Both the position numbers and the translations under genes were made by a program. DNA of 64,000 nt from an uncultured Dehalococcoidales bacterium (lineage in GTDB: Bacteria > Chloroflexota > Dehalococcoidia > GIF9 > UBA5629): the NCBI GenBank assembly GCA_964554375.1, contig CAZKOL010000004.1, positions 16,535 to 80,534 of the forward strand. Reading direction: 5' to 3'. Numbering within the stretch: the stretch's first letter is position 1; every line of letters begins with the position of its first letter. Below the pieces are notes generated by a model. It made no database searches. It saw nothing but the letters and a program-made list of their open reading frames with translations, and was not told the DNA's origin. Positions 5,231-57,607 of this stretch are shown piece after piece.

Positions 5231-5299
5231 GTCCGGTTTCCTCCCCTTTCTAAAACGTGCATAATAAGTCGGTGAGCGACATTATTGGCGCTTCACATT

Positions 5300-6070: not shown

Positions 6071-6162
6071 TAATAGTTAAAACCTATTGATAATTAATAT
6101 GTCATATACGCGCTATAATCACAGGGAATTGCGCCATCACAAGTATTTTTCCTGTGGGTTCA

Positions 6163-7161
6163 TCATTGTCCCAATTCCGCCGCCTTTTTAAAATCTGCTT
6201 CGGCTTTGCTCTTATCGCCTATTTTATTATATGAAAGCCCACGGTTGTAGTAAGCGTTGGCAAAATTCGGTCTTAATTCTATGGCTTTAGTGCAATCGGC
6301 TATGGAATGGTTGTATTCATTCATAAAAAAATAACTATTCGCACGATTGTAGTATGCTGCTGCATACTTCGGGTTCAGTTCTATTGCTTTAGTGAAATCA
6401 GCTATGGCTTCGTTGCAGCCTCTTAATTTATAGCAAAGTCCACGGTTGTTGAATACTTCTGCATCATTCGGGTTTAGTTCTATTGCTTTGTTTAAATCAA
6501 CTAGAGCTTTGTCACGGTCATTTTGTCGATAATATACATTCCCACGGCCACTATAAGCATCAGCATTATTCGGGTTTAGCGCTATTGCCTTGTTGTAATC
6601 AGAAATAGCTTTGTCATAGTCACCTTTTTTATAATAGGAAAGCCCACGATTGAGGTAAGCGATGGTAGGATCCGGGTCTATCTCTATTGCCTTGGTGAAA
6701 TCAACTATGGCTTTATCATATAGTCCTTCTTTGCCATAGGCCAGCCCACGACCTTGGTAAGCCATGGCATCCTTCGGGTCCAGTCCTATCGATGTAGTAA
6801 AATCAGTAATAGCGTTGTCGTAGTTACCAATGTCACTATAGGCACGCCCGCGCCCGCAGTAAGCCTGGGCATATTTCGGGTCTATATCAATCGCCTTATT
6901 GTAATCAGCTATAGCTTTGTCGTATTCACCTTTGACAGCATAGGAGACACCACGGTAGAAGTAAGCAACAGCATCTTGCGGGTTTAGCGCTATTGCTTTT
7001 GTGTAATTGTCAACGGCCTGGTCCCATTGATTGGGCCCGTTATTTATGCAACTTAAAAGCAACATTACTGTGGCAAGGAAAGCACATACGGTAATTGTAA
7101 TTATTCTCTTGTATTTCATAATTTCCTCTATGTCATGCCTTTTGTTAATTTTGTTGCTCAT
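6163..7161 (-). CDS. TPR-repeat lipoprotein
   Basis: 332 aa. Has a signal peptide with the lipobox LLLSC, followed by about 8 tandem TPR repeats (AYxxRGxxYxxxGxYDKAIxDxxKAIELNP). Its start overlaps the upstream gene by 4 bp (ATGA). Confidence 0.7.
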   Translation of the reverse strand: MSNKINKRHDIEEIMKYKRIITITVCAFLATVMLLLSCINNGPNQWDQAVDNYTKAIALNPQDAVAYFYRGVSYAVKGEYDKAIADYNKAIDIDPKYAQAYCGRGRAYSDIGNYDNAITDFTTSIGLDPKDAMAYQGRGLAYGKEGLYDKAIVDFTKAIEIDPDPTIAYLNRGLSYYKKGDYDKAISDYNKAIALNPNNADAYSGRGNVYYRQNDRDKALVDLNKAIELNPNDAEVFNNRGLCYKLRGCNEAIADFTKAIELNPKYAAAYYNRANSYFFMNEYNHSIADCTKAIELRPNFANAYYNRGLSYNKIGDKSKAEADFKKAAELGQ

Positions 7162-7613
7162 GGTTTATTCTCTTGTCTTGTCATTTCGGATGAGTTTGTT
7201 ATTTGCGCCTGGGTTTTCGATGTCTTTTTATTACTTAGAATAATTGAAATAATCGGGAAAAATAAGGCCAACCAAAGCCAATTTAAACTCCTGCCTTTTT
7301 GATGTAATACCCATCCATTTACAGGTAACATAGCCCAGCACAGAAAGTAGGTTGAAGCATTTTTTGCTGTTCCAACAATGTCGAATCCCAGAAATGTTCT
7401 TAAGAAAGCAATAAAAAAACAAAAACCGAGGAGCCAGAACAACCATGTTAGATTCAAGTGTTTCTTAAACCAGGATGTTTCTACGGTTTTTGATTGTTTA
7501 CTATTTACAACTACGGGTATATTACCTTGGCATCCACAATCATCTGCATAACCCATAAATTCCCTTCCGCACTTCGAGCATGTTCTGTTTATCATCCTAT
7601 TCTTCCTCCCCAT
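7158..7613 (-). CDS. Zinc-ribbon multi-pass membrane protein
   Basis: 151 aa. N-terminal CSKCG...CGC zinc ribbon followed by 3-4 predicted TM helices. Confidence 0.5.
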   Translation of the reverse strand: MGRKNRMINRTCSKCGREFMGYADDCGCQGNIPVVVNSKQSKTVETSWFKKHLNLTWLFWLLGFCFFIAFLRTFLGFDIVGTAKNASTYFLCWAMLPVNGWVLHQKGRSLNWLWLALFFPIISIILSNKKTSKTQAQITNSSEMTRQENKP

Positions 7614-7633
7614 TTGTAGTAAAATGCTGAAGT

Positions 7634-8098
7634 TTATTTGGCTTTACTAAATAGTTTTTTTGGAAAATCAGTATCGCCTATTTTATAAGTTAGTTGGCCA
7701 TCACTTCCTATTACGGCGTATTTCTCTCTGGGTGACCTGGCCACGGTAACCCATTTGCTTTTCTCATTGTCTCCGATAAACATTAGTTTTGCTAACTCCT
7801 GGAAGCTCAGGCAGCATATACCATCTTCACCACATACCAACCCAATAAAGACATCATTAACCCCCTTCTTAACTTCAGTAAGTTCTTTGATATGTTCCGG
7901 TGCAAAAGTGAAACCCCAGGGAGTTAGACGCTTTTTACAATGCTTGATATGGAGATAGACCGTGCTATTGATCAAATAGCCGTTGTTACCTGTAAATAGC
8001 TTTATTGATTCCGGTTTTCCATCTTGAATCAGACGTACCAGTGCAATGCCATGATAAGTTTTATAGTTATCCATTCGCTTTTTGACATAAATTTTCAT
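7634..8098 (-). CDS. Hypothetical protein, possible effector partner of the Z1 ATPase
   Basis: 154 aa ORF whose start overlaps the 3' end of the upstream Z1-ATPase gene by 32 bp. No recognisable motifs. Confidence 0.45.
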   Translation of the reverse strand: MKIYVKKRMDNYKTYHGIALVRLIQDGKPESIKLFTGNNGYLINSTVYLHIKHCKKRLTPWGFTFAPEHIKELTEVKKGVNDVFIGLVCGEDGICCLSFQELAKLMFIGDNEKSKWVTVARSPREKYAVIGSDGQLTYKIGDTDFPKKLFSKAK

Positions 8099-9926
8099 AG
8101 ATTTTAATATTCTCCGCGTACCAATACACTACACGTGATTGGTTCATCGTATTACGTAAAATCATGAAATGATGAAGTGCGCGTGGATATTGCTTTAAAT
8201 CTTTGCCTCCAAATACATTTCTCTGCCTAATTAAATTGTTATGATAATCCGTATCTGCCTCTTGAATTGGCCGTATCTCATGTATTGCGATGTATCCTGC
8301 ATGCGGTTTTGTATTGATTCTAATGAAGTCAATTATGTATTCCGGCAGAACCTCATCGCCGAATTCCTTATTGATTTTTTCTAATTTACCTATCTCATCA
8401 ATGATACGGTCGTGGATTATTTCCTCAATTCTATTTGAATACTTGAAGACTGCGAATAACATCTCGCCTTCTTTTAGAACCACCGCTCTTTTATCTATGC
8501 TACCTGACGCGGCCGGCGTGATTCGATTGTCAGCAAGCCAGATGGGTGCACCTCTTTTTGTCTTTATAGCTTGTAGTGACAGATAATGATATACAAAACA
8601 CCTGTGCCAATCCGCATATAATGTTTTTGGTATAGATAATTCAAATAGATCCAGATATCCCTTCCGATTTCCAAACATTCTTGCTCTTTGTATATAAGTA
8701 TCTTGCTGTATTCGATGCTTGGCATCCCTGGTGAAAAACATGCTTAATAGGTTATTGATTGTGATGCCTCTTGATATCATATTGCCACCGATTATTATCG
8801 TAAATAGAGACGGTGGTTCAGTCGTGATCATGCTGCTTTTTTTCTGGTAATTCATGACCTCAACAAATTTTTTCCCCAGATGGCTGATCACAAATTCTAC
8901 TATCTTATCAGCAGTTTTTTCGCCATATTTATTATTTGCAGTCTCCCAAAGTCGTCTAATGTATTTATCTCGTTGCTGGTCGCCATTGTCATTTAAGATG
9001 CGTAGAACGTCAGATACCACTTTTTTATCTTTGTCATGAGCATCTGTTTTTCCACTTGTGTGGATTAGAAAACAGCATTTAACATCGTCATGAAGAGCTG
9101 TTGTCATTTTATTCTTAATATTTTCATCAATATTGACGTACCCGACATTTACTATAAATCTTAATAATGCATCTATAAGGTATTTAGGATCGTCCCCTGT
9201 ATCCTTCAAAGGTACTAATGAATAATGCAGTGGTACCGTCAGGTCAATGGGAAAGAATTCATTTTTACCCACATAGTATTCGTGTGGTTCAAAGCACAGC
9301 CAGTTCTTTGAAATATTGTCGAAAGTATTATTTAAGTCTATTCGCGCCGGTGTAGCAGTAACGCCTACATAAATTCCATTGTTATCGAGTAGCTTGTTTA
9401 TTTCATCGTTTATCCTGCTTCTCTCATTTTTATTTATTTTTGAATTAGGAGAGGCGAAGTCAGCTTCGTCGTCAATGACAACCTTGCCGCGTTTGTTGCG
9501 CAGATATTCATTTAATTTCTTTAAAACGTTAGCGTTTTTCCTCGAAAATATAATGCATCGGTCGTCAACCATTTTCGGATCAGTAACAGAAATAATATCA
9601 ACCGGTGTCGGATCTATGTCCGAATCTTGAAATCGCTTCAGATTTTGTTCCAATAACGGGATAGTGTCATTTATTAGAATTACTATGTTTTTGTGTCCAA
9701 GGTCTTGCAGTTTCGAGGTTAAAGCGACCATCATTTCAGTTTTACCACTTTGCGGCTCACCATATATTACAAATGACTTGGCACCCGATTCCAAATTACC
9801 TACGGCTTCCATAACCGTTTTTTCGATGTGTTCTGTGTTCTTTCCTCTGTTACGTAATGCGTTGATATGTCTGTCGTATCTATCGGCATCAGAAGTTAGA
9901 TCTTTGAATTTGTTAATATCGAACAT
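8067..9926 (-). CDS. Z1-domain SF2-helicase-like ATPase (defence-island associated)
   Basis: 619 aa. Walker A VIYGEPQSGKTEM, Walker B VVIDDEADFASP, motif III GVTATPARI, and a C-terminal IIIGGNMISRGITINNL segment typical of Z1-domain proteins. AT-rich codon usage. Confidence 0.7.
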   Translation of the reverse strand: MFDINKFKDLTSDADRYDRHINALRNRGKNTEHIEKTVMEAVGNLESGAKSFVIYGEPQSGKTEMMVALTSKLQDLGHKNIVILINDTIPLLEQNLKRFQDSDIDPTPVDIISVTDPKMVDDRCIIFSRKNANVLKKLNEYLRNKRGKVVIDDEADFASPNSKINKNERSRINDEINKLLDNNGIYVGVTATPARIDLNNTFDNISKNWLCFEPHEYYVGKNEFFPIDLTVPLHYSLVPLKDTGDDPKYLIDALLRFIVNVGYVNIDENIKNKMTTALHDDVKCCFLIHTSGKTDAHDKDKKVVSDVLRILNDNGDQQRDKYIRRLWETANNKYGEKTADKIVEFVISHLGKKFVEVMNYQKKSSMITTEPPSLFTIIIGGNMISRGITINNLLSMFFTRDAKHRIQQDTYIQRARMFGNRKGYLDLFELSIPKTLYADWHRCFVYHYLSLQAIKTKRGAPIWLADNRITPAASGSIDKRAVVLKEGEMLFAVFKYSNRIEEIIHDRIIDEIGKLEKINKEFGDEVLPEYIIDFIRINTKPHAGYIAIHEIRPIQEADTDYHNNLIRQRNVFGGKDLKQYPRALHHFMILRNTMNQSRVVYWYAENIKIYENLCQKANG

Positions 9927-10191
9927 TTTGTGCTCTTTGTATAATTAGCTTTCTCGACTTATTATGAATGCAATAACTTCGTAAATTGTCTACACCGATC
10001 TGCGCAGGATTATATAACTCTTTTTATAACTACGCAATACTATTAATGTTCTAAACCCGTCAATACCCTATAAGACCCTGACAAACCCCTTTTTAACAGT
10101 CTAAATATGCTGACGCGGCTGTCAATGGCTATGTATTTACTTGAAAATGCACAACGTGAGGGTAACTACGACCTGGCAGCCCTGGCCGTTC

Positions 10192-10462
10192 CTACATGCC
10201 GTCGAGCGCAGTCACTCCCATGAGGTGGAGCGCCCTGGCCAAGACTATTTGTGCGGCCATCACCAGCTTCAGCCTGGCAGCCGTAAGGTCCGCATCTTCC
10301 GAGATGACGCGGCACTGCTCATGGAAAGGACTGTAAGACCGTGTCCAGGTCCTGGGCGTAGAAAGGCAGGTGATGCAGCTGGTGTGACAGCGCAACTGTC
10401 TCGATTATCTCCAGCATCCTGGCCATGCTGCGTATCAGCGCCAACTGGGGCTCCTCAATCAG
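10192..10462 (-). pseudogene. Duplicated, diverged 3'-terminal fragment of argS (about 90 codons), the left direct repeat of the integration signature
   Basis: Translation [43 protein letters not shown] parallels the ArgS C-terminus [43 protein letters not shown] encoded at 12484-12753. Nucleotide similarity extends across 10085-10462 versus 12226-12753. Confidence 0.75.
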
Positions 10463-10469
10463 GTTTCAT

Positions 10470-12143
10470 CTATTTCACAATCGTTATCTGCCGTGGATCG
10501 GTCGCTATAATGCACGGAGCCCCCTTGTAACGGTCGATTTTCCCCAGAACCCTCACATTATTATCCATATAGGTAAACACGTCAGGGAATTTCTTGAAGT
10601 CCTGGATATTGATGACCACCCTGAAATCAGTTCCGCACTGTCCCTGTTTCCAAGCGTCGTAGTTGTTACAATGTTGATTCGGATTATCAAAATATAGCAA
10701 CATGGGTCGGGTTTCTACGTCCCAGGCACTGGCATATTCAACAACTGACCCTTCGATAGCTACTTCCTTGCCCAAATATTTGTTTATTTTTTCTAAGTCT
10801 AAAGCAGAAATTGTCGTTTCCGGTTTAATAGTTATCTCGGCCATTGTTGGCGCCTTTAGTTTCTCGGCCAATTCGTAGGGCACTTTCCCCCAGTTTGGTG
10901 ATCCATCAGCATAGTTGTTATTAATAATCCTTGTTACGTTGCTTCCATCTGCATCCATGGTATATATTTGCCATGCGTTTTTAAAGCGAATACCGAAATC
11001 CAATGGTTTACCATCTCTATCCGATACGAATGCTATCTTTTTGCCATCGGGTGACCATTCCGACCAATCGTTAAACTGACCATGTCCACCAATATTTTGC
11101 GCTTGAGTTAAATTTATTTGATGACTTCCATCAGAATTCATAACATAAATATCGTAAATTTCGGTATTTACATCTTTTTTAGAACTTAGGTAGGCTATTT
11201 TGCTGTCATCAGGAGAGTATGCTCCACCTCCGTCCCAGGTGACATATTGCGATGTCAAAGTTTTAATGCTTTTCATCAGTGGATTTGAATTTGGATCGAA
11301 CAATGACGTACTAGTGCGTGCTGGTTTGAGAACCAATCTGTTACCTGTATATGACCACGATTCACCGGAATAGTTGTCTGGAGTGGAGTTGAAAATAATC
11401 TGCTTGACCATATCGTAATCTATGTCAATTTCCCACAAACTATATCCACCATCGCCCAAAGTATTACATATCAGCTTTTTCCCATCACGTGACCATTTTG
11501 GCCATGAATACGCTTCTGGCGTTGTAGTAATTTTCAAGAATTTGGTTCCCTCTGCATTCATAACCCAAATGTGACCGTAATTTGAATGTGTAGAACAAAA
11601 TACAATCATAGTGCCATCCGGTGACCAACTGGGCATGCTATCCCATTTAAGACTGCCAGTGAGATTCTTGACATTTCCACCATCTACATCCATAACGAAA
11701 ATATCCCAGTTGTTATCTCCTTTATTATCAGGTTCCCATTTTCTGTCTGAGACGAATAATATCTTTTTCCCATCAGGTGACAAACTGGGTATTAAATCCA
11801 TATCTGAGTTATTTGTTAAGTTCACCTGGTTATTACCGTCTGGATCCATGATATAGATTTCATAATTATTCCCAGATAACACATTCCAGCCTTTTGCCCA
11901 GTCCCACTGCCACGTGGCATCGCGCAACGACCAGAATACGATTTTCTCCTGATATTCTGGATTCTGTGGCAAAGCGGCCGGTTTAGTCAGAGTCTTATTA
12001 TCAACCTCGGTCGGGGATTGGGGTTTTATTGATTGATTATCAACAACAACCGGTAGGGGAGTCTTAATACCAGGTGTACAACTTACAAAAATTGTAATAA
12101 TAACCAATAATGAAACGGCTATAACGACTGACATTTTAACCAT
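10470..12143 (-). CDS. TolB-like beta-propeller (PD40-repeat) lipoprotein with an uncharacterised C-terminal domain
   Basis: 557 aa. Signal peptide/lipobox FVSC, a Pro/Gln-rich linker, repeated SPDG/SWSPDGK PD40 motifs, and low GC content. Confidence 0.7.
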   Translation of the reverse strand: MVKMSVVIAVSLLVIITIFVSCTPGIKTPLPVVVDNQSIKPQSPTEVDNKTLTKPAALPQNPEYQEKIVFWSLRDATWQWDWAKGWNVLSGNNYEIYIMDPDGNNQVNLTNNSDMDLIPSLSPDGKKILFVSDRKWEPDNKGDNNWDIFVMDVDGGNVKNLTGSLKWDSMPSWSPDGTMIVFCSTHSNYGHIWVMNAEGTKFLKITTTPEAYSWPKWSRDGKKLICNTLGDGGYSLWEIDIDYDMVKQIIFNSTPDNYSGESWSYTGNRLVLKPARTSTSLFDPNSNPLMKSIKTLTSQYVTWDGGGAYSPDDSKIAYLSSKKDVNTEIYDIYVMNSDGSHQINLTQAQNIGGHGQFNDWSEWSPDGKKIAFVSDRDGKPLDFGIRFKNAWQIYTMDADGSNVTRIINNNYADGSPNWGKVPYELAEKLKAPTMAEITIKPETTISALDLEKINKYLGKEVAIEGSVVEYASAWDVETRPMLLYFDNPNQHCNNYDAWKQGQCGTDFRVVINIQDFKKFPDVFTYMDNNVRVLGKIDRYKGAPCIIATDPRQITIVK

Positions 12144-12483: not shown

Positions 12484-14142
12484 CTACATCTTATCCGGCG
12501 CGGTCATGCCCATCAGGTGTAGCGTCCTGGCCAGGACTATTCTTGCGGCCAGTACGAGCTTCAGCCGGGCGGCGGTCAGGTCCGCGTCTTCCGAGATGAC
12601 GCGGCACTGTTTATAGAAGGAATGAAAGACCGTGGCCAGGTCCTGGGCGTAGAAGGTCAGGTGATGGGGCTGGTGTGACAGCGCGACGGTCTCGATGATC
12701 TCAGGCATTTTGGCCATGCTGCGTATCAGGGTCAACTCCGGCTCCTCAATCAGCAGGCTTGTATCGCCGTTGGCGAAGTCGATCCCTTTCTCCGCTGCGT
12801 TGCGCAGGATGCTGCTGATGCGCGCGTGCGCGTACTGCACATAATAGACCGGGTTGTCGGCGGACTGCTTTATGGCCAGCTCCAGGTCGAAGTCCATCTG
12901 GCTATCAGCCGAGCGCGACAGGAAAACGAAGCGGCAGGCATCGGGGCCGACCTCCTCCAGCAGCTCGCGCAGTGTGATGATATCGCCGCTCCTTTTGGAG
13001 ATTTTAACCGCCTCTTTGCCGCGCCTCAGTGTGACAAGCTGGCAGATGATGATCTCGAGCCTTTCGGAGTCGATGCCCAGCGCTCCCAGCACTACCTTCA
13101 TCCGCTGGACATGGCCCTGGTGATCAGCCCCCCAGATGTCGATGACATTGTCGAACTTCCTCACGGCGAACTTGTCGTAGTGATATGCAATATCGGAGGC
13201 AAAATAGGTGGGTGTACCATCGGAGCGCACCAGGACATTATCCTTGTCCTCTCCCAGGGTGGAGGAGGTGAACCAGGTGGCATTCTCCCTTTCTGCTATA
13301 TAGCCACCGTCCCTCAGCATGCGCATCGTGTCGTCATACCGGCCGCTCTTGAACAGGCTTTGCTCGCTGAACCACTCATTGAAGGTTACGCCCAGCGTTT
13401 CAAGGTCCTGCCTGATCTGCTGCATCTCCCTCTCTATCCCGATCTGACCGATCTCCGCCACGGCGCGCTCCTCAGGCAGGCCGGCGTATTTATCTCCGTA
13501 TTGCTTAACGAGTTCCCTGGCCAGGTCTACGAGATAGCTGCCGTGATACCCGTTGGCCGGTACCTCGACCTCCTTTCCCAGGGCCTGCAGGTAGCGTGCA
13601 TACAATGACCGGTGGAAAGCCTCGAGCTGGCTGCCGGCATCATTTATGTAATATTCCGTTGAAACCCTGTAGCCGGCCGCTTTAAGGACGTTGGCCAGCG
13701 TGCTGCCCAGCACGGCCCCCCGCCCATGTCCCACGTGAAGGGGCCCGGTGGGATTTCCGCTGACGAACTCAATCTGGATGCTTTTGTCCTCAAGTTGTAT
13801 GTTGCCGTAAGCCTCGCCTGCCCGGCAGATGGCGTCCACCTGGCGGTTCAGCCATTTTTTACTCAGCGTAAAGTTGATAAACCCCGGCGGCGCCGCAGCA
13901 ACCTTCTCTAAATCGCTGTCCGGTGACATGTGATCAACTATGGCAGCGGCCACGTCCATGGGCTTCATCCCGGTCAGCCGCGCCAGCTTGAGTGGCAGGC
14001 TGCTGGCATAGTCTCCGTGTTCCGGCCTGGCAGGCCTCTCGATTGTTATCTCCGGCAGGCTGGAGTTACCCACCAGGCCTTTTTCGCCAGCCATGGCAAA
14101 GGCCTGCTCCAGCATTTCAGCCAGCCGTTTTTTAAAAATCAT
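12484..14142 (-). CDS. argS: Arginine--tRNA ligase
   Basis: 552 aa class I aaRS with HVGHGRG (HIGH) and KISKRSG (KMSKS) motifs, plus an N-terminal Arg-tRNA-synthetase add-on domain. Confidence 0.92.
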
Positions 14143-47565: not shown

Positions 47566-48339
47566 TCAGGCGCCCAGCTTCTTCTTATCGCCGCCCATCT
47601 TTTGCAGCATGGGCTCAATCAGCTCAATTGGCAGTGGGAACACCACCGTATTGGTACGTTCTGAAGCTATGGCCACCAGCGTCTGGAGATAGCGCAACTG
47701 GAGGGCCGCAGGTTGACTGGAGATGATCTTAGCGGCCTCGGCCAGCTTCTCGGCCGCCTGCGCTTCACCCTCGGCGGCGATTATCTTGGCTCTCCTCCCC
47801 CTCTCGGCCTCTGCCTGCGCAGCCATGATTTTCTGCATATTATCGGGCAGTTGAACATCGCGCACCTCGACCAGGCTCACCTTGATGCCCCATGGCTCGG
47901 TGCTTTCATCGATTATGGTCTGCAACTTCTCGTTTATCCTTTCCCGGTGCGCCAGCAGATCTTCGAGTTCCGACTGTCCAACCACGTTCCGCAAAGTCGT
48001 CTGACAAAGCAATGACGTAGCTCTGATATACTGCTCAACGTTCAGGATCGCCCACTCCGGCTTCATCACGCGAAAATATACTACCGCATCTACCTTGACC
48101 GTCACCGTGTCCATGGTGATACATTCTTGCTGCGGCACGTCCATGGTCACAACGCGCAATTCGACTTTAACCAGGCGCTCGATAAAGGGTATGAGCAGGA
48201 TAAGACCCGGGCCCCTGACGCCCACGTATCTGCCGAGGCGAAAGACCACACCCCTTTCATACTCATTGACTATCCTGATAGATGCAAAAAGCACTATCAA
48301 AACGAAAATCGCCAGTACTATTATTCCCGCAAACTGCAT
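47566..48339 (-). CDS. SPFH/band-7 (stomatin-like) membrane protein
   Basis: 257 aa. N-terminal TM followed by [17 protein letters not shown]. Confidence 0.85.
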
Positions 48340-48348
48340 AGCTGCCTC

Positions 48349-49662
48349 CTAATTTTTTTTTGTTACTATAAGTTTAAGGTTATCCACCTTCTGAACAATC
48401 ACCTCTTCCCCCGCGTGAGCCTGGCCTTCATCCAGCTCAGCCTTCCAAAGCTCTCCCTCCACCATCACCATACCCCTGGGCTTGAGAGCAGTTCTAACTT
48501 CGGCCACCTGCCCGATCATACCTTCCTTCCCGGTGGTCACCTTCCTTTTTTGCCCCCTGACAACAGCCCAGACCAGGAAAGCCATAAAGGCGGCCAGAAA
48601 AATGGCGACGTACACGATGAGACTCTTATCGAACTGCATGGATGCCTCACTTTCACTAAAAAGGATGAGCGAACCTATAACGAGCGATACAACTCCACCT
48701 GTGGTCAGTATACCATAAGCAGGTACAAAAATCTCAGTTACGAAGAGGCCGAAAGCGAGCACTATGAGCAACAACCCCGCCCAATACGCGTTCAGCACAC
48801 CCAGCGAGTAGAAGGCCAGGAAAAGGCAGATCCCGCCGATCACTCCGGGTAAGATGAGCCCCGGGTTGGAGATCTCGGTGATCAGCCCGATGGAAGCCAG
48901 TGTAAGCAATATATATGCAATGTTAGGATGGCTGATGGTCTGCAGTGTCTTCTCCGCCAGCATCATATCGCTTTTAGTGACGCCAGCATTCTCTGTATCG
49001 ATGGTGACCTCTCTGCCGTCTGCCAGTGTCACCTTTTGCCCGTTGATCTGCCTTATGACGCTGTCCAGATCATCGGCCTGAAAATCCACCAGCTTTTTCT
49101 CGACGGCTTCCTTGGCGGTGAACGACTTGCTCTCCCTTACCGCAGCCTCGACCAGGGAAGGATCGCGCCCCCGCTTCTCAGCTATGCTCTGTATCCAGGC
49201 TGCCGAGTATTCCGTCACCTTCTTCTGAACGTCTTCAGGCATCTGCTCACCCACGCTCACCGGGTGAGCTGCTCCCAGGCTGGTCGCCGGCGCCATGGCG
49301 GAGAGGTGCGCCGAAACAGTGATGAAAGTGCCAGCCGAAGCGGCCCAGGCGCCGTGGGGCGATACGTATACTACCACCGGGACCTTTGCGTTCATGATAC
49401 GCTCGACTATTTTTGTGGTGGAATCCAGCAGGCCACCCGGCGTGTCCAGTGTGATAATACAAACTGAAGCGCCACCGTCCTCAGCTTCACCTATGCCGCG
49501 GCTGATATAGTCGGCTACCACGGGGACTATATTGCCTTTAACCGTGAGTACAACGATATTCCCGCCATTAGCCTGTGCCCCGGCAGGCAGCAGGCAGAGA
49601 ATCATACCCAGTACAAAGCAAACAAGATAAAGGATGCGGAGAAGGTTTCTTAGCATTGCCAC
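48349..49662 (-). CDS. NfeD-family membrane-bound serine protease (stomatin operon partner)
   Basis: 437 aa. ClpP-like N-terminal domain, a TM bundle and a C-terminal OB domain. Upstream of the SPFH gene. Confidence 0.8.
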   Translation of the reverse strand: MAMLRNLLRILYLVCFVLGMILCLLPAGAQANGGNIVVLTVKGNIVPVVADYISRGIGEAEDGGASVCIITLDTPGGLLDSTTKIVERIMNAKVPVVVYVSPHGAWAASAGTFITVSAHLSAMAPATSLGAAHPVSVGEQMPEDVQKKVTEYSAAWIQSIAEKRGRDPSLVEAAVRESKSFTAKEAVEKKLVDFQADDLDSVIRQINGQKVTLADGREVTIDTENAGVTKSDMMLAEKTLQTISHPNIAYILLTLASIGLITEISNPGLILPGVIGGICLFLAFYSLGVLNAYWAGLLLIVLAFGLFVTEIFVPAYGILTTGGVVSLVIGSLILFSESEASMQFDKSLIVYVAIFLAAFMAFLVWAVVRGQKRKVTTGKEGMIGQVAEVRTALKPRGMVMVEGELWKAELDEGQAHAGEEVIVQKVDNLKLIVTKKN

Positions 49663-50020: not shown

Positions 50021-51271
50021 ATGGAAAGTCAAAAATGCAAAGGGGCCCGCGACCTGCTGCCGGATGACATGGAGCGTTTCCGGCAGGTTGAGGATGCCTT
50101 CCGCAATTCGTGTTTGAACTGGGGCTACCGCGAGATCAGGACTCCCACGCTGGAATACATACACCTCTTCACAGCAGCGGGGACGCTGACTCCCGCCATG
50201 CTGGGGCGCGTCTACTCCTTCCTCGACTGGGACGGCTGGGGAGGCGAGCGCGTCGTCCTGCGTCCCGACGGGACCATACCGGCCGCCCGGCTCTACAGCG
50301 AGAACCTCTCAGCCCAGAAGGTAGCCCGCCTCTACTACATAACCAACGTCTTCGCATTTGAGGAAACCGGCCGTGAGAACCGTGAGAAATGGCAATGCGG
50401 AGTGGAGCTTTTAGGCGATTGTGACCGGGCTGCGGATGCCGAGGTCATCGCCCTGGCGCTGGAGATAGCGGGGTCGATGGGATTATCACAGCCGGAGCTA
50501 AAGCTGTCTCACGCGGGCATTTTGAAGGCGCTCATCGGCGAACTCAGGCTGGACGGGGACAGCAAGGCAGCCCTGCTGGATGATATACTCGAGGGCAACT
50601 GGCAGGCCTTTGCCAGCGTTAAAAGCAAGAACAGGGAAGTGGTCAACGCCATTGCAACCCTTATCAAGCTGAAGGGAAAATCAAGCGGTTTCCTGGCAAA
50701 CCTCAAGACCATGCCCGCCGTATCAGCGGATGTAAGGAATGAGATCGACCGCTTCTCCGAGGTTACCGCATTGCTGGATACAATGGGGATCAGCTACTCT
50801 ATCGACTTCACGTCCATCAGGGGCTTCGAATATTATACAGGCCTGTGTTTCAAGGTAACCTCGGGGGGCGCCAGGATATGCAGTGGTGGCAGGTACGACA
50901 ACCTGATAGGACTGGTAGGTGGCAAAGATATACCGGCCTGCGGTTTCGCCTTCTACCTGGACACCATTACAGCCATGGTTAAACCATGGTCGCAACAAAA
51001 GGCCGAGAAGACCGTGGCGGTTAAAACCACAGGAAAGTCAGCTTCCGTGGTCAAAACCGCATTTGAAGCGGCGGCGGCCATGCGCAAAGTCGGGCTTATT
51101 GCAGAACTCGATTTTCGCGGCAGCCAGCTAGAAGCACGCTGGTCCGTGACGGTCAATGTGCGGCCCGCCGGCTTCACTATAGTCGATAAATATAAGAATA
51201 CACGGATGAGAGTAGCTACGGTTGGCGAGGTCATCAACATGATCGGGGGTTTCAGCAAGCTTGGCCGGTAG
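50021..51271 (+). CDS. hisZ: ATP phosphoribosyltransferase regulatory subunit HisZ (HisRS paralog)
   Basis: 416 aa HisRS-like core (GGRYD). The histidine-binding motif is degenerate (FAFEE rather than FRYE). Directly precedes hisG. Confidence 0.75.
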   Translation: MESQKCKGARDLLPDDMERFRQVEDAFRNSCLNWGYREIRTPTLEYIHLFTAAGTLTPAMLGRVYSFLDWDGWGGERVVLRPDGTIPAARLYSENLSAQKVARLYYITNVFAFEETGRENREKWQCGVELLGDCDRAADAEVIALALEIAGSMGLSQPELKLSHAGILKALIGELRLDGDSKAALLDDILEGNWQAFASVKSKNREVVNAIATLIKLKGKSSGFLANLKTMPAVSADVRNEIDRFSEVTALLDTMGISYSIDFTSIRGFEYYTGLCFKVTSGGARICSGGRYDNLIGLVGGKDIPACGFAFYLDTITAMVKPWSQQKAEKTVAVKTTGKSASVVKTAFEAAAAMRKVGLIAELDFRGSQLEARWSVTVNVRPAGFTIVDKYKNTRMRVATVGEVINMIGGFSKLGR

Positions 51272-52691
51272 CGTAGCAGTTGATACCCGCCTGGCCCTGC
51301 CCAAGGGTAAAATGCTGGCGCGCACAGCCACGTTTCTCAATTCCATTGGCCTGGGTTTTGATCATTATACCTCAGGTACCCGCATTTACCGCATGAAGGC
51401 GCGGTCTATGCCGGGGCTGACGGCCAAAATGCTTAACGAGCGGGATATACCCGTCCAGGTTGCGGTGGGCAACTACGATTTCGGCATTTGCAGTTCAGAC
51501 TGGCTGCAGGAGCTGCAGGCCAGGTACCCGGCCAGCCACGTGATTAAAATTGCAGACCTGGGATACGATATTGCGGGCATTTACCTGGCCTGTTCCGCTT
51601 CCTCGGACATATCCGCGCAGGTCATGGCCAATAGTACCTCTGCCTGGCGCATAGTAACCGAATACCCGGCCCTGGCGGAGGCAGCCGCATACAAGATGCG
51701 GCTTAAAAGGTACCGCATCTTTCCCTGCTGGGGATCCACCGAAGCATACCCGCCTGAGAACGCCGATTTCTCGGTCCTGCGCGTCAGGGACGACTATACA
51801 CTGCGCAGCCTGAACTTGAGGCCGGTCAGGAGGATATGCGACAGCAATGCCTGCATCATCGCCAACAGCAATAATCTCCAGAACAGCGACTTCAGTTGCC
51901 TGCTTGAGCGCTTTGCCTCATCCACCACCATGAAAGATAAACCCTGGCAGGTCCAGGAGAAAGTGGCTGTACTAAATAACGACCTGGCCGGCGGCAGCCG
52001 TGCGGGCAATGTTTGGCTTGCGCTGGCCGACGGCCACCAGCAGGAGCATACCGCCACCTTCATGGAGAAGACGGGGATCCAGCTTAAAGGATACTCGAAA
52101 GATGATTTAAGGCGCCGCCCTTCTTGCAATTTTAACTGGCTCAGCATCAAAGTCATCCGGCCTCAGGACATGCCACAGCAGGTCGCCAACGGGAATTTTG
52201 ACCTGGCCATCACCGGTCGGGACTGGCTGCTCGACCACCTTTACCAGTTCCCATCCAGTCCCGTAGCCGAACTGGTCAACCTGGGCTTCGGATGGGTACG
52301 CATCGTGGCCGTGGTCAGCGAAGATGTGCCTGTGAACTCAACCAGCGCCCTGCGCAGCCTCATAGCAGGGGGTAAGATGGTCCCCCTGCGCATAGCCACG
52401 GAGTATGTCAACATAGCTGATAAGTATCTGCGCGATAAACACATTGCCCGTTACCGTGTCATACCTACATGGGGGGCGACTGAGGTCTATTTACCAGAGG
52501 ATGCTGACATGCTGATCGAAAACACGGAGACGGGTCAGACCCTGTCGCGGCATAAGCTCAAGATTATAGATACGCTCTTCGAGTCGACGGCCTGCCTGAT
52601 AGGCAACAGGCACAGCCTGGAAGCGCGCGGCAAAAAGGCCAGAATTGAGAATCTGGTCAGGATATTCCGTGAGGCGGTAAGCAAAAAATGA
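51261..52691 (+). CDS. hisG: ATP phosphoribosyltransferase, an unusual tandem fusion of two HisG(short) modules
   Basis: 476 aa. The C-terminal half has the canonical DFDLAITGRD and ENTETGQTLSRHKLK motifs. The N-terminal half is HisG-like (DFGICSSD) but has a degenerate PRPP loop (VRDDYTLRSLNL). Confidence 0.75.
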   Translation: MAGSVAVDTRLALPKGKMLARTATFLNSIGLGFDHYTSGTRIYRMKARSMPGLTAKMLNERDIPVQVAVGNYDFGICSSDWLQELQARYPASHVIKIADLGYDIAGIYLACSASSDISAQVMANSTSAWRIVTEYPALAEAAAYKMRLKRYRIFPCWGSTEAYPPENADFSVLRVRDDYTLRSLNLRPVRRICDSNACIIANSNNLQNSDFSCLLERFASSTTMKDKPWQVQEKVAVLNNDLAGGSRAGNVWLALADGHQQEHTATFMEKTGIQLKGYSKDDLRRRPSCNFNWLSIKVIRPQDMPQQVANGNFDLAITGRDWLLDHLYQFPSSPVAELVNLGFGWVRIVAVVSEDVPVNSTSALRSLIAGGKMVPLRIATEYVNIADKYLRDKHIARYRVIPTWGATEVYLPEDADMLIENTETGQTLSRHKLKIIDTLFESTACLIGNRHSLEARGKKARIENLVRIFREAVSKK

Positions 52692-53971
52692 AGGTGATAA
52701 GGGATTATCAGCAGGCTAAAAAAGCCCTCTGCCGCAGCATTCAGTACGACCCGGACAGCAGGATTGAAGCTTCCGTGCGCGAGATAATCGAAGATGTCAA
52801 GAAGGGCGGGGATGAAGCCCTGCTTACCTATACAGAGCGCTTCGAAGGAGCCCGTTTGAGATCTCTCGAGGTCACGCCCGGGGAGCTGGCGGCCGCCCGC
52901 AGATCGGCTCATCCGCAATTGATGAAAGCGCTCAAATTCGCCGCTGCACGCGTGGAAAGATTCCATAAAACCTGTATGCAGAGATACGGCCATAGTTTCC
53001 TTAAAGACGGGCTGGGACAGCAGGTGCTACCCCTCGAACGCGTGGGATTATACATCCCCGGAGGGACTGCTTCGTATCCCTCCACGGTCCTCATGACTTC
53101 CATCCCTGCAAGGGTGGCCGGGGTAAAAGAGATAATCATGGCCACGCCCTGCGGCAGTGACGGAAAAGTACCGGCCAGTACACTGGCCGCCGCCGGTATC
53201 GCCGGCGTTGACCGCATATTCAAGATCGGCGGCGCGCAAGCCGTGGCTGCCATGGCCTTTGGCACAGATTCGGTGCCGCGTGTGGACAAGATTTGCGGAC
53301 CCGGCAATGTATACGTCATGACCGCCAAGAAGCTGGTTTACGGCCTGGTGGATATCGATGCCCTGCAGGGGCCCAGCGAGGTCATGGTGATAGCCGACGG
53401 CTCCGCCGATCCCGCTTTTTGCGCTGCTGACCTGGTAGCACAATCGGAACATGACGCCACTGCCTCGTCAATTTTTGTAACCACGGCGGAAGGACTGGCT
53501 GTTAAAGTACAGATTGAACTTAAAAGGCAGCTTGCCGGGCTGAAAAGGAACAACATCGCCGGCAGGGCGCTGCAGGCAAACGGTTTGATCGTTATAGTGA
53601 AAACTCTCGAACAGGCTATAGAACTGGCCAACCTTTACTCACCTGAGCACCTCTCACTCATGGTCAGAAACGCAGGCCGCTATATTGACCGCATCAGGAA
53701 CGCCGGCTGCATTTGCGCCGGGTATTACTCGCCGGTGGTGCTGGGCGATTACGTTGCCGGTCCCAGCCATGCGCTGCCCACCGGAGGCAGTGCCCGCTTC
53801 AGCTCACCGCTGACCGTGCAGGATTTCCTCAAAATAAACAGCATCATTGCCCTTGATGACCGCGCCATCGAAACGCTTGGCCCGGTGGCCGCGTTGATGG
53901 CCGATAACGAAGGCCTGACCGGTCATGCCAATGCCGTGAGGATCAGGCTGGACAAGAGGAAAAACAAATAG
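52688..53971 (+). CDS. hisD: Histidinol dehydrogenase
   Basis: 427 aa. Contains the hisD region CGPGNVYV...SEH. Confidence 0.92.
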   Translation: MKVIRDYQQAKKALCRSIQYDPDSRIEASVREIIEDVKKGGDEALLTYTERFEGARLRSLEVTPGELAAARRSAHPQLMKALKFAAARVERFHKTCMQRYGHSFLKDGLGQQVLPLERVGLYIPGGTASYPSTVLMTSIPARVAGVKEIIMATPCGSDGKVPASTLAAAGIAGVDRIFKIGGAQAVAAMAFGTDSVPRVDKICGPGNVYVMTAKKLVYGLVDIDALQGPSEVMVIADGSADPAFCAADLVAQSEHDATASSIFVTTAEGLAVKVQIELKRQLAGLKRNNIAGRALQANGLIVIVKTLEQAIELANLYSPEHLSLMVRNAGRYIDRIRNAGCICAGYYSPVVLGDYVAGPSHALPTGGSARFSSPLTVQDFLKINSIIALDDRAIETLGPVAALMADNEGLTGHANAVRIRLDKRKNK

Positions 53972-54002: not shown

Positions 54003-54443
54003 ATGATCAGGGTACACCGCGGTAATTTCCTGTACACGCTGAACAGCATTCGGCAAAGCCTGTTTGCCTATCTCGAATCGGAACTCGCCAGGCAGGGTAT
54101 CGGCGGCATCGCCCCCTCTCACGGCGATATCCTGCATATCCTTGATAAGAAGGGCGCCCTCCACCTGCGCGATTTAACCGAACTGTCGCTCAAGGATAAG
54201 TCCACGATAACTGCGGTCATCAGCCGCCTGGAAAAGAACGGCTATGTGACCAGGAAAAGGGACGGTAATGATAAGAGACTGGTAAACATCCAGGTCACCG
54301 ATAAGGCCGAGACAGTCAAGCCGGCCCTGAGAAAAATATCCGAGAAGATGAATTCGCAGCTATTCGAGGGGTTAAGCGCGGAGGAAAAAAACACTCTCTT
54401 CAAATTAATGACCAGGGTGAGCCATAACGTTAACAAACTGTAA
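54003..54443 (+). CDS. MarR family transcriptional regulator
   Basis: Winged HTH LRDLTELSLKDKSTITAVISRLEKNGYVTRKRDGNDKR. Start is probably internal. Confidence 0.8.
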   Translation: MIRVHRGNFLYTLNSIRQSLFAYLESELARQGIGGIAPSHGDILHILDKKGALHLRDLTELSLKDKSTITAVISRLEKNGYVTRKRDGNDKRLVNIQVTDKAETVKPALRKISEKMNSQLFEGLSAEEKNTLFKLMTRVSHNVNKL

Positions 54444-54548
54444 TCCCTCCGGCCAAACGCCACCCCTCATCATCGTTTACATGATTCCCTGACCGTGTTA
54501 AAATAGTTTTATACAAAACTATTTATTAAATTCACGGAGGAGAGCCAG

Positions 54549-55373
54549 ATGAACGCCGAGAGCGAAATCATAGATGTCTGGATGCAGCACCCCACCATGA
54601 AGTTCGGCAACCACCAGATGTTCGATTCGTTGCGGAGGTGGACCGGGCAGGAGAGACTCCTGTCTGAGTTGCCGCTTGAGCTGACTATAAGCATGATGGA
54701 CCAGGCCCATGTCTCCAGGGGACTCATCTGCGCGTGGTGGAGCCCGACGGGACCTCTCATCTCCAACGACGAGGTAGCGGCTTTTGTTCAGAAATACCCC
54801 GGAAGGCTGGTCGGCGTGGCCTCAGTTAACCTGTACAGGCCGATGGAGGCGGTGAGGGAGCTCAGGCGCTGTGTCAAAGAGCTCGGTTTCAAGGCGCTGC
54901 GCATCGTGCAATGGCTATGGAACCTTCCTGCCACCGACCGCCGCTATTATCCCCTTTATGCAGAATGCATAGATCTCGACATCCCATTCTGCTGCCAGGT
55001 CGGTCACACCGGGCCGCTTTGCCCATCGGAGCCGGGCAGGCCTATTCCCTATATCGACGAGGTGGCGCTTGAGTTTCCCGAGCTCAAGATAGTCGGCGGG
55101 CATATAGGTTACCCATGGACAACGGAGATGATCGCCGTGGCGACCAAGCATGAGAACGTTTATATCGACACCTCAGCCTACGTCGCCAAGAGGTTCCCGG
55201 CGGAACTGGTAACATATATGCAAAAGAACGGCCGCAAGAAAGTCATGTTCGGCACCAATTACCCCATGGTCACGGCGGCCATGTGCCTGAAGGACCTGGA
55301 TTCGCTCCAGCTAACAGAGGAGGTTAAAAAACTCTTCCTCTACGAGAATGCCCAAAGGGTATTCGGCCTGTAA
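54549..55373 (+). CDS. Amidohydrolase-2 family metal-dependent hydrolase
   Basis: 274 aa with a TIM-barrel amidohydrolase pattern (HxH ... D). Confidence 0.6.
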   Translation: MNAESEIIDVWMQHPTMKFGNHQMFDSLRRWTGQERLLSELPLELTISMMDQAHVSRGLICAWWSPTGPLISNDEVAAFVQKYPGRLVGVASVNLYRPMEAVRELRRCVKELGFKALRIVQWLWNLPATDRRYYPLYAECIDLDIPFCCQVGHTGPLCPSEPGRPIPYIDEVALEFPELKIVGGHIGYPWTTEMIAVATKHENVYIDTSAYVAKRFPAELVTYMQKNGRKKVMFGTNYPMVTAAMCLKDLDSLQLTEEVKKLFLYENAQRVFGL

Positions 55374-55636
55374 ATTCCAGCCGCCGGGTAATTCTCATCC
55401 GCTGAAAATATCCGCCCGATGGTCCACCCATAGGAATATACGGGAGACTATGGAGTGCCCGTGGCGACCTGCTCATATCCATATCACAAAGCATTTTGAC
55501 AACGCGCCGGATTGCATGAGACTATTTAAGACGCTCTGCAATCACGTTGCACAATCCGTAGCGCGCTGATATAGTGAACTCGGAATGCAACGGAGGCTGC
55601 GGGTGAAAGCTGCCACCGGTTGGCAGGCGTAGATCA

Positions 55637-57607
55637 ATGGAATCATTTATCAGGTTAAATCCTATCGCTCTTTCGCTGGCAATACCCGCCCTGATATCGG
55701 GTAGTCTGGCTGCGTATGCTTTCACCCGGCGCCCGGTCGTGGGTTCGCGGGTCTTTGCCTTCCTCATGCTGGCTTTATGCGTGTGGTCCGTTTTTTATGG
55801 GGTGGAGCTGTCCTGCCTGCAACTCCAGGGAATGCTGATCAGCGCTGTGCTGGAATACATTGGGATTGCCGCCGTACCCGTGCTTTTCCTGATTTTAACG
55901 CTGGTATACACGGGAAGGGAAGAATGGGTGACCCAAAGGACTATCATCCTGCTTTTCGTAATACCCTTTATAACCATAGCAATGGTAGCCACTAACCATC
56001 TGCATTACTTTTATTACAGCACAACCAGCGTGGATACCGGCGGCCCATTTCCCATGATAGCGCTCACCAGGGGGCCGTGGTTTTGGGTACATTCTGTTTA
56101 CTCTTATGCCGCGCTTCTGGCAGCCACCTTTTTACTGATCGCAAGGATGGGGAAACCGGGTACTATGTTCCGCAAACAGGTAATAGCCATGCTGGTCGGA
56201 TTGTGCGCGCCCTGGACTGTGAATATCCTTTATGTGGCTGTCGGCCTGATGCCCTTTGGACACCTGGATCTAACGCCTTTTGCTTTTACCGTCACCGGTG
56301 TGGTGATCGCCTGGAGTATGTTCAGTCATAGTCTTTTCGACATTGTGCCCATGGCCTACGATAAGGTTGTCGATAGCATTGATGATGCCATCCTAGTGCT
56401 GGACAGGCGGAAAAGGATCGTGGAGTACAACAGGGCGGCCCGTGAAATCTTGGAATTATCCCAGGCCGATATAGGACAGTCCGTAGCAATTGTCTGGAAG
56501 GATAGGCCGGATTTATTGAAGCTGAGCGAGGCGGATGAGTCAAACCGTATCGAAATTGTATCCGGCCTGCGGGATTCGATTCGTTATTACGAGGCCTCCG
56601 CCTACGATGTGGAAGACAGGCACAGACGCCCTATAGGTAAAACCATATCGCTGCATGACACCACTGACAAGAAAAAGGCGGAGGAGGCGTTGCGGCAGAG
56701 CGAGGAAAAATACCGCACCCTTGTAGAGAATATCAACGACGTCTTTTACACACTTGATAACCAGGGGACCATTACCTATGTCAGCCCGGTAGTTGAGCGC
56801 TTAAGCAAGTACAAGGTCAGTGACTTAATAGGAAAACCTTTTACCTGCATTGTTTACCCGGATGACCTGCCGGGCCTTTTAGACAGTTTCAACCGCCTGG
56901 TGTCCGGTCAACTGGAACCGTGGGAGTTCCGCGCCCTGGATAAGGACGGCAGGATCATATTTGTGCGTACCTCCAGCCGGCCTATCTATGAAGATGGAGA
57001 GATCGTGGGTATCACAGCCCTGATAACGGATATTACAGAGCAAAAGAGGTTGGAGCAAGAACTCGTAAAAATGGCCACCCATGACTTCCTCACAGGGTTG
57101 CCAAACAGGGTATTGCTGATCGACCGTTTTAAAATGGCGGCAGCGCTGGCTCACCGCAACAAAGCCAGGCTTGCCATCATGTCGTTGGATCTGGATAAGT
57201 TAAAATCCATCAATGATACCCTCGGTCACGCTGTCGGAGATCAGGTGCTTAAGCTTAGCGGTATGCGGCTAACGGGCATAATTCGTGCCAGCGACACGCT
57301 AGCCCGAATTGGAGGAGACGAGTTCGTTCTGGTGATGCTGGAGACCCATCATATGGAAGATGCCACTGCTATAGCCCAAAAAATCCTGGATTCCTTTAAA
57401 GAGCCGTTATTGATCGAAGATCATCAGCTGCATTTGTCCACCAGCATAGGTATCGCTATATATCCCGAAGATGCAAAAGACCTGGAAACCCTGATTAAAA
57501 AATCCGATGCCGCACTGTATTACTGCAAAGGTCACGGCCGCAACCAGTTCAAATTCTTTGGCGACGGCGATGTCCGGTTTGAAGAAGATCGCGAAAACGC
57601 CACCTGA
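55637..57607 (+). CDS. Membrane sensor diguanylate cyclase (multi-TM sensor + PAS + GGDEF)
   Basis: 656 aa. About 7 N-terminal TM helices, a PAS region, and GGDEF motif RIGGDEFVLV. Confidence 0.85.
   Translation: MESFIRLNPIALSLAIPALISGSLAAYAFTRRPVVGSRVFAFLMLALCVWSVFYGVELSCLQLQGMLISAVLEYIGIAAVPVLFLILTLVYTGREEWVTQRTIILLFVIPFITIAMVATNHLHYFYYSTTSVDTGGPFPMIALTRGPWFWVHSVYSYAALLAATFLLIARMGKPGTMFRKQVIAMLVGLCAPWTVNILYVAVGLMPFGHLDLTPFAFTVTGVVIAWSMFSHSLFDIVPMAYDKVVDSIDDAILVLDRRKRIVEYNRAAREILELSQADIGQSVAIVWKDRPDLLKLSEADESNRIEIVSGLRDSIRYYEASAYDVEDRHRRPIGKTISLHDTTDKKKAEEALRQSEEKYRTLVENINDVFYTLDNQGTITYVSPVVERLSKYKVSDLIGKPFTCIVYPDDLPGLLDSFNRLVSGQLEPWEFRALDKDGRIIFVRTSSRPIYEDGEIVGITALITDITEQKRLEQELVKMATHDFLTGLPNRVLLIDRFKMAAALAHRNKARLAIMSLDLDKLKSINDTLGHAVGDQVLKLSGMRLTGIIRASDTLARIGGDEFVLVMLETHHMEDATAIAQKILDSFKEPLLIEDHQLHLSTSIGIAIYPEDAKDLETLIKKSDAALYYCKGHGRNQFKFFGDGDVRFEEDRENAT

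Follow-up and report, generated by a model that had tools for sequence, protein, structure and literature searches.

A HisZ-linked tandem HisG of Dehalococcoidia in which only the C-terminal module keeps the PRPP-binding loop

ATP phosphoribosyltransferase (ATP-PRT), the first enzyme of histidine synthesis, serves textbooks as an example of allosteric control. In the stretch of DNA considered here, 64,000 nucleotides of contig CAZKOL010000004.1 from an uncultured Dehalococcoidales bacterium (the whole stretch is referred to below as the window), a single open reading frame (ORF) downstream of a hisZ-type gene joins two HisG modules in one polypeptide, and only one of them has a recognizable loop for binding phosphoribosyl pyrophosphate (PRPP). 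The question raised by this locus is what such a protein is: a damaged or misassembled pair of genes, an ordinary dimer made in one piece, or an arrangement in which the second module has taken on another role. We find that the double HisG is no oddity of one genome: across a large part of the Dehalococcoidia it is the norm. We regard it as likely that the C-terminal module (C-module) is the catalyst and the N-terminal module (N-module) a paralogue without the PRPP loop that fills the second position of a short-form HisG (HisG_S) dimer, the two forming a HisZ-coupled unit that was fused in Dehalococcoidia.

The hisG gene is recognized in two forms, a long HisG_L of 292 ± 11 amino acids (aa) and HisG_S of 214 ± 9 aa, according to a 2021 survey which also noted that a deep survey of hisG_L, hisG_S and hisZ had not yet been carried out (PMC8305728). 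In the short-form ATP-PRT two HisG_S dimers enclose a HisZ tetramer between them, giving a hetero-octamer of separate subunits (PMC10795190). The ORF in the window, as listed from the DNA, is open from a TTG start without an internal stop. Its start overlaps the stop of the upstream hisZ-like ORF by 11 nt, the start of hisD overlaps its end by 4 nt, and a run of G lies ~13-17 nt ahead of the TTG. Pfam and NCBIfam profiles identified the three genes as HisRS/HisZ-like (HisRS, histidyl-tRNA synthetase), HisG with two matched stretches, and HisD:

50021..51271, + strand: hisZ-like gene, 416 aa, HisRS paralogue, probable ATP-PRT regulatory subunit (PF13393 tRNA-synt_His, 207 bits)
51261..52691, + strand: fused double hisG ORF, 476 aa plus stop, TTG start (PF01634, TIGR00070, AlphaFold2 model)
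52688..53971, + strand: hisD, histidinol dehydrogenase, 427 aa, translationally coupled (PF00815, 513.5 bits; TIGR00069, 502.3 bits)

The whole protein scored 210.9 bits against PF01634 (HisG) and 234.2 bits against TIGR00070 (hisG), with two stretches matched by each profile, and either half scanned alone exceeded the curated cut-offs of 25.5 bits (PF01634) and 75.75 bits (TIGR00070):

51285..51905, + strand: N-type HisG module, approximately residues 9-215, HisG fold, probably inactive (TIGR00070, 106.1 bits; PF01634, 80.8 bits)
51906..52010, + strand: variable inter-module linker, approximately residues 216-250 (unconserved alignment columns, low model confidence)
52011..52688, + strand: C-type HisG module, residues 251-476, probable catalytic unit (TIGR00070, 132.4 bits; PF01634, 133.9 bits)

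The two halves are 32% identical to each other over ~217 residues (E 5e-34), far beyond chance. The N-module can be aligned to P. arcticus HisG_S (5M8H) and the C-module to solved HisG structures, and in these alignments the module ends coincide with HisG_S chain ends. No match to the regulatory HisG_C domain was found, PF01634 being the sole Pfam family at E ≤ 1 in the double HisG. An earlier note on this DNA had described two short-form HisG modules in tandem and had proposed beforehand that each half be held against HisG profiles; the N-half does align, at 106.1 bits to TIGR00070, and the description is borne out for both halves.

The predicted structure agrees with this. The AlphaFold2 (AF2) model built with the family alignment had a mean predicted local distance difference test score (pLDDT) of 87.3 and a predicted template modelling score (pTM) of 0.82; the N- and C-modules have an identical order of secondary-structure elements, and the linker (residues 231-250) falls to a pLDDT of ~60. 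The high pTM suggests a defined packing of the two modules. A Foldseek search of the PDB with this model returned HisG chains only (E ~1e-18), with TM-scores normalised to the target of 0.83-0.89 against HisG_S structures, reaching 0.89 for those of P. arcticus, B. pertussis and A. baumannii; each match spans about half of the model, with a TM-score normalised to the query of ~0.4, and the aligned half is not specified. The protein has no C-terminal regulatory domain and co-occurs with hisZ, as HisG_S does and HisG_L does not, but at 476 aa with two diverged modules it is not the single module of ~214 ± 9 aa that defines HisG_S. Judged from the sequence, membership as a catalytic HisG appears to hold for the C-module only.

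Searched by homology, a collection of 5.8 billion proteins yielded more than 120 distinct clusters (formed at 90% identity) of ~477-aa proteins, with identities of 52-99%. Those that bear a name come from metagenome-assembled genomes (MAGs) of Chloroflexi or Dehalococcoidia; they are few, and the protein is annotated in them simply as “ATP phosphoribosyltransferase”. A second search seeded with a divergent member gave the same picture, and over both searches there were more than 200 distinct clusters of ~477-aa proteins, from JGI, ENA, NCBI and Logan. In a HMMER search of 1.84 billion cluster representatives, full-length double-HisG proteins extended down to ~31% identity. Among GTDB contigs (one genome per species), at least 560 stretches encode a relative; the locus counts that follow refer to the best 80 of these, all of which cover essentially the whole protein, all of which belong to Dehalococcoidia/Chloroflexota, and one of which is on a closed 2.46-Mb chromosome (L013). 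The second of the two homology searches, whose seed was the protein of a MAG labelled Dehalococcoides mccartyi (L055), also served to look for the fusion in a cultured isolate; all names among its matches were those of MAGs or metagenomes.

The order hisZ-like, N-half, C-half, hisD, on one strand, holds in all 80 loci wherever the contig reaches. A hisZ match lies directly upstream in 79 of the 80, the exception being a contig that begins ~170 nt before hisG (L012), and hisD lies downstream in 76, with no hisD match in L006, L025, L052 and L067. The double hisG is a single uninterrupted ORF in 78 of the 80 loci. In the other two (L059 and L073) an in-frame TAA TAG in the linker creates a natural split, at position 6640-6650 in L059; within the fused clade, this two-gene form would be either secondarily split or ancestrally unfused. 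The continuous ORF in the window and in 78 of 80 independent genomes rules out a frameshift or an artefact of assembly or annotation, so that a missed stop, which the earlier note had named as a way for its reading to fail, does not account for the fusion; the orthologs in relatives, about which it had asked, are fused as well.

Which motifs each half has kept was examined by aligning 86 fused proteins, cutting them at the linker and aligning the halves with canonical HisG; statements of invariance (R41 and R286, for example) come from a 64-sequence alignment. The residues concerned, numbered as in the window protein, are:

51303..51311, + strand: K15-G16-K17, canonical K-G-R motif retained in the N-module, at the position of P. 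arcticus Arg32 (alignment)
51381..51383, + strand: R41 (within T40-R41-I-Y43-R44), equivalent of P. arcticus HisG_S Arg56 (alignments)
51756..51809, + strand: degenerate PRPP-loop region of the N-module, residues 166-183, ENADFSVLRVRDDYTLRS, in which [DE]xxx[ST]Gx[ST] is lost
52029..52040, + strand: D257-G258-H259-Q260, invariant and family-specific, replacing the canonical K-G-R in the C-module (alignment)
52110..52118, + strand: R284-R285-R286 (then P287), at the Arg56 position of the C-module (alignment; exact register uncertain)
52497..52544, + strand: intact PRPP-binding loop of the C-module, E413-D-A-D-M-L-I-E420-N-T-E-T424-G425-Q-T427-L428, matching [DE]xxx[ST]Gx[ST]

The earlier note had contrasted TETGQTL in the C-module (residues 422-428) with DDYTLRS in the N-module (residues 177-183) as a PRPP loop kept and a loop lost. 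The two strings occupy homologous alignment positions, and the contrast extends to the whole family: the PRPP 5-phosphate loop [DE]xxx[ST]Gx[ST] is present in 86 of 86 C-halves and in 0 of 86 N-halves, where 77 distinct strings occupy that region. In the C-module E420, N421, T424, G425 and T427 are invariant, and the loop aligns with the DxxxTGxTL loop of solved HisG structures, with E420 where Asp is usual.

At the canonical K-G-R position the pattern is reversed. The N-halves read PKG[RK] in 73 of 86 cases, and the C-halves read [PA]DGH in all 86, within a D257-G258-H259-Q260 stretch whose residues are invariant. The catalytic half thus appears to be atypical itself, having an invariant D-G-H-Q in place of the K-G-R (Arg32) that the N-half keeps. 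Arginines at the Arg56 position are conserved in both halves: R41, which aligns with P. arcticus Arg56, is invariant in the N-half together with Y43 and R44, and R286 and P287 are invariant in the C-half, where an “RR-P” pattern is conserved. Other invariant residues of the N-half include K15, G16, the D62-I-P64 block, G70-N-Y-D73, Y135-P136 and W157-G158, and it retains almost the entire HisG signature, including W157-G158..E..P-P-E-x-A-D. Mean pairwise identity is 0.485 among N-halves and 0.584 among C-halves, the C-half being the better conserved in 97.6% of 3,655 pairs. These patterns indicate that the N-module is still under constraint, yet evolving faster than the C-module.

The 416-aa protein encoded upstream matches the HisZ structures 3OD1, 1Z7M, 8OY0 and 5M8H and also HisRS structures. 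The motif-2 Arg of HisRS is replaced in the window protein, which reads VFAFEE where HisRS 1WU7 reads WRYEE, and this Arg is absent in 93 of 93 related loci, fused and split forms included, where its substitutes are Ala, Glu, Val, Ser or Thr and, in single loci, Ile, Gly or Leu. “LRPDGT” and “GGRYDNL” are kept in the window protein, as are “LRPD.T” and “GGRYD” across the 93 loci. The protein can be aligned to HisRS 1WU7 up to residue 387 and has no HGTP_anticodon match in Pfam; HisZ has a mean length of 377 ± 39 aa and is without the tRNA anticodon-binding C-terminal domain (PMC8305728). Because the motif-2 Arg is lost and the gene is invariably adjacent to hisG, the upstream gene is taken to be hisZ, and the sequence evidence supports an unusually long HisZ (416-440 aa, including those of the split systems of Desulfobacterota described below). 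The earlier note had likewise placed hisZ upstream, and the profile matches, the 79 of 80 loci and the missing Arg agree with it.

The two modules also exist as separate, translationally coupled genes in Desulfobacterota. The HMMER search of the cluster representatives had also returned proteins of 210-250 aa matching only the N-half or only the C-half. Metagenome loci of a low-GC N-like group have the order hisZ-like, N-like hisG, C-like hisG, the two hisG genes lying in different frames with stop/start overlaps (…GGAGGcaaacTAATGgc…) of the type TAATG or TGATG after GGAGG, downstream of hisZ. By a homology search, the N-like gene was assigned to Ca. Magnetoglobus multicellularis, Ca. Magnetomorum HK-1, Magnetomoraceae gMMP-1, Desulfococcaceae HSG9 and Desulfobacterales MAGs. 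Gene calls of GCA_000516475.1 and GCA_030378005.1 give a HisRS-like protein (435-440 aa) followed by HisG (221-225 aa) and a second HisG (214-255 aa), confirming the split form in Ca. Magnetoglobus multicellularis and Desulfococcaceae HSG9. A HisZ-type gene is present in all split-type loci. In these loci (L081-L104, Desulfobacterota) hisD does not come after the hisG pair, unlike in Dehalococcoidia, and in Ca. Magnetoglobus the pair is followed downstream by opposite-strand type II secretion or pilin-like genes (N_methyl, T2SSF).

In a neighbour-joining tree (capped Kimura distances, 60 bootstraps), fused N-halves clustered with split N-like proteins in 59 of 60 bootstraps and fused C-halves with split C-like proteins in 47 of 60. 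The N-type and C-type clades each hold fused and split members; therefore the basic unit is an N-type/C-type HisG pair, which was fused in Dehalococcoidia. The possibility that the low-GC standalone N-like proteins are mere fragments was rejected, as loci and gene calls give them as genuine separate genes. Some high-GC standalone N-like proteins (P0162, P0240) do look frameshift-garbled. P0240, of 637 aa and from a high-GC source, is an apparent fusion of HisZ with an N-type HisG; its long runs rich in Arg and Pro suggest that the gene call is frameshifted and the fusion not genuine. A further group of single-module HisG proteins (P0183, P0193, P0218 and P0236) has the C-type motifs “RPQE[IV]P” and “G.DW” and an insertion of ~17 aa (…EPTVISPY…) ahead of the G-A-T-E motif. 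P0183 branches beside the N and C clades in the tree, and this group may lie near the ancestral protein that gave rise to the pair by duplication.

How such a pair might work can be proposed from what is known of the P. arcticus enzyme, in which Arg56 of one HisG_S subunit extends over the dimer interface to the pyrophosphate of the PRPP in its partner and HisZ rescues Arg32 and Arg56 mutants of HisG_S (PMC9734150). The fused protein would be a covalent HisG_S-like dimer with a single live site, in the C-module; the N-module, very probably inactive in catalysis to judge from its lost loop, would stand in place of the second HisG_S subunit, keeping the dimer interface. It would donate R41 in trans to the active site of the C-module, in the manner of Arg56, and make some of the contacts to HisZ; together with this co-translated partner, it would pass on both activation and feedback inhibition by histidine. 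A HisZ tetramer carrying two fused chains would have the known geometry of the hetero-octamer, but two active sites where the canonical complex has four. Duplication with a division of labour is the probable origin of the N-type/C-type pair, and fusion of the pair in Dehalococcoidia would fix a 1:1 ratio and prevent homodimers. Loss of the Arg32 motif at the live site would be plausible in a system always paired with HisZ. The “non-catalytic” module and the “regulatory implications” of the earlier note are both things that we infer.

Several observations weigh against this reading. The argument for an inactive N-module turns on the loss of one loop, and the presumed live C-module is without the canonical K-G-R (Arg32) that the “dead” module has kept, so the make-up of the active site may differ from that of known enzymes. 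R285/R286 of the C-module are conserved though they would be aimed at the dead site, which hints that the N-site still binds something. The N-type and C-type clades are only weakly joined as sisters (21 of 60 bootstraps), so that the tree does not demonstrate a single duplication. The HisZ-like protein scores 227.8 bits against TIGR00443 (hisZ; cut-off 271.65) and 233.5 bits against TIGR00442 (hisS; cut-off 286.75), below the cut-off in both cases, so that profile scores do not settle whether it is HisZ or HisRS, and it has the length of a HisRS with a HisRS-like C-terminal extension. On the other side of the balance, no second hisG was found in the 64 kb of the window.

The main rival takes up the hint of a ligand. 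According to this explanation, the N-module would be a new allosteric site that senses ATP, ADP, AMP, pyrophosphate (PPi) or PRPP and tunes the C-module, a second input beside histidine and HisZ; the site, one for phosphate or nucleotides, would be made of K15-G16-K/R17 and the domain-I motifs, with R285/R286 of the C-module reaching in. The N-module loses only the 5-phosphate loop and keeps a near-complete domain-I signature together with the G..E..P..AD stretch, and R286-P287 is invariant in the C-module even though it is directed into the N-site. AMP and ADP are known inhibitors of ATP-PRT, which also counts in its favour. However, the Arg32 equivalent is basic in only 73 of 86 N-halves and thus not strictly required, and the constraints of the fold, the dimer interface and the HisZ contact could explain the conserved residues equally well. 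We consider such a site unlikely.

It is very improbable that the protein, or its complex with the HisRS-like protein, has a role other than that of ATP-PRT, or even that the hisZ-like gene encodes a working HisRS. The invariant D-G-H-Q in place of K-G-R, E420 in place of the usual Asp, and a partner of HisRS length that scores against hisS as well as hisZ could be read in this way; however, the conserved operon includes hisD, the whole protein scores 234 bits where the cut-off of the hisG equivalog is 75.75, the window contains no other hisG, and the motif-2 Arg, which is essential for HisRS chemistry, is missing in 93 of 93 loci.

The chance that both modules are active, the N-module binding PRPP through other residues in an ordinary two-site dimer that is merely fused, appears slimmer still. 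The N-module does retain K-G-K/R, the Arg56 equivalent, the D-I-P block and the G-x-x-E motif, but the loop is found in 0 of 86 N-halves with no conserved substitute (77 strings among 86), and the module evolves faster than its partner; a region without conservation cannot make up a conserved substrate site. An artefact in which sequencing error or a chimeric contig merged adjacent hisG genes, for which one could cite only the genuine two-gene form of other lineages, can be dismissed given the continuous ORF of the window and of 78 of 80 independently assembled genomes, the closed chromosome among them, and the more than 200 distinct clusters of ~477-aa proteins.

We thus return to the pairing of a catalytic C-module with a loop-less N-module as the likely reading, and compare it with known systems. 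The reference structures of the HisG_S and HisZ hetero-octamer are those of L. lactis (1Z7M), T. maritima (1USY), P. arcticus (5M8H/6FU2) and A. baumannii (8OY0). Like HisG_S, each module is a HisG core of ~210 aa with matching fold and without the C-terminal regulatory domain; a hisZ-type gene is co-encoded and translationally coupled, the C-module has the PRPP loop, and there is an Arg aligned with Arg56. Unlike the HisG_S homodimer, there are two diverged paralogues (32% identical here), one of them without the PRPP loop, in a single polypeptide in Dehalococcoidia, with D-G-H-Q for K-G-R (Arg32) in the module taken to be catalytic; two active sites per complex would be expected, not four, and the HisZ is longer (416-440 aa), with a HisRS-like C-terminal extension.

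In common with HisG_L, for which E. coli 1H3D, M. tuberculosis 1NH7 and C. jejuni 4YB5 are the reference structures, the protein has the fold and reaction of the catalytic core and probably an extra regulatory function on the catalytic polypeptide. The extra part of HisG_L is an ACT-like histidine-binding domain of ~80 aa (HisG_C) in a homohexamer without HisZ, whereas here it is an entire second HisG core, with no HisG_C match and with hisZ present. The tandem duplication, divergence and fusion that probably gave two paralogous modules in one gene also resemble the elongation of the his genes hisA and hisF from half-barrels (as defined in PMC7284861), and retention of one copy as a putative non-catalytic partner resembles enzyme/pseudoenzyme paralogue pairs. 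Unlike the hisA/hisF case, there is a living unfused two-gene stage, and the duplicated unit is a whole oligomer subunit, not a sub-domain.

The remainder of the window offers some context. Its his genes are the hisZ, hisG and hisD cluster only, the remaining ones not lying within it, and a scan of the whole window with Rfam at the gathering threshold gave no match of any kind, and so no RNA leader, T-box or riboswitch upstream of hisZ. Judged by eye from translations, the cluster is flanked by a probable membrane-protease/band-7 pair (47566-49662, - strand) and by a small regulator-like ORF, a 274-aa ORF and a 656-aa membrane protein with a GGDEF-like end (54003-57607, + strand). A low-GC island at 3923-12143, with genes on the - strand and a GC of 0.37-0.43 against ~0.55 in the rest of the window, sits between a TrpS/TyrS-type gene (2679-3662) and argS (12484-14142); it holds two TPR-repeat proteins, three ORFs without a Pfam match, a PD40 beta-propeller protein and, at 8067-9926, a protein with a Z1 domain plus a ResIII helicase-like part. 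The island has the look of an insert gained by horizontal transfer, possibly with a role in defence, that separates two aminoacyl-tRNA synthetase genes.

The earlier note had called the architecture unusual, and the literature agrees insofar as PMC8305728 recognizes only HisG_L and HisG_S; reviews of his-gene elongation and fusion omit hisG (PMC7284861, PMC1963479), and our search of the open-access full-text literature for tandem, paralogous or pseudoenzyme HisG, and for ATP-PRT in Dehalococcoides, returned nothing relevant. The architecture is conserved and real and, apparently, undescribed; what is new is its recognition, the sequences being already public under a generic name. A bolder formulation would have it as a third ATP-PRT architecture, HisZ together with a catalytic HisG and a HisG-derived pseudo-subunit that form an obligate heterodimer, encoded by two genes in Desulfobacterota and fused in hundreds of Dehalococcoidia species, and, in its strongest version, with a pseudo-site that acts as a second allosteric sensor of nucleotides or PPi and catalysis that proceeds without Arg32. 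We put this forward tentatively, as possible but doubtful.

Only two architectures of ATP-PRT are recognized, the HisG_L hexamer and the HisG_S/HisZ hetero-octamer. The ~477-aa proteins of Dehalococcoidia fit neither HisG_L nor HisG_S, and the N-type genes of Desulfobacterota called “ATP phosphoribosyltransferase” probably do not encode enzymes; both points bear on annotation and on metabolic modelling. The hisG gene would join the his genes in whose history duplication and fusion have played a part, and its unfused intermediate survives in another phylum. Importantly, an asymmetric dimer of a live and a dead HisG would be a natural test of the action of Arg56 in trans across the dimer and of the compensation by HisZ for missing active-site arginines, as nature appears to have left the live site without its Arg32 motif and the dead one without its PRPP loop.

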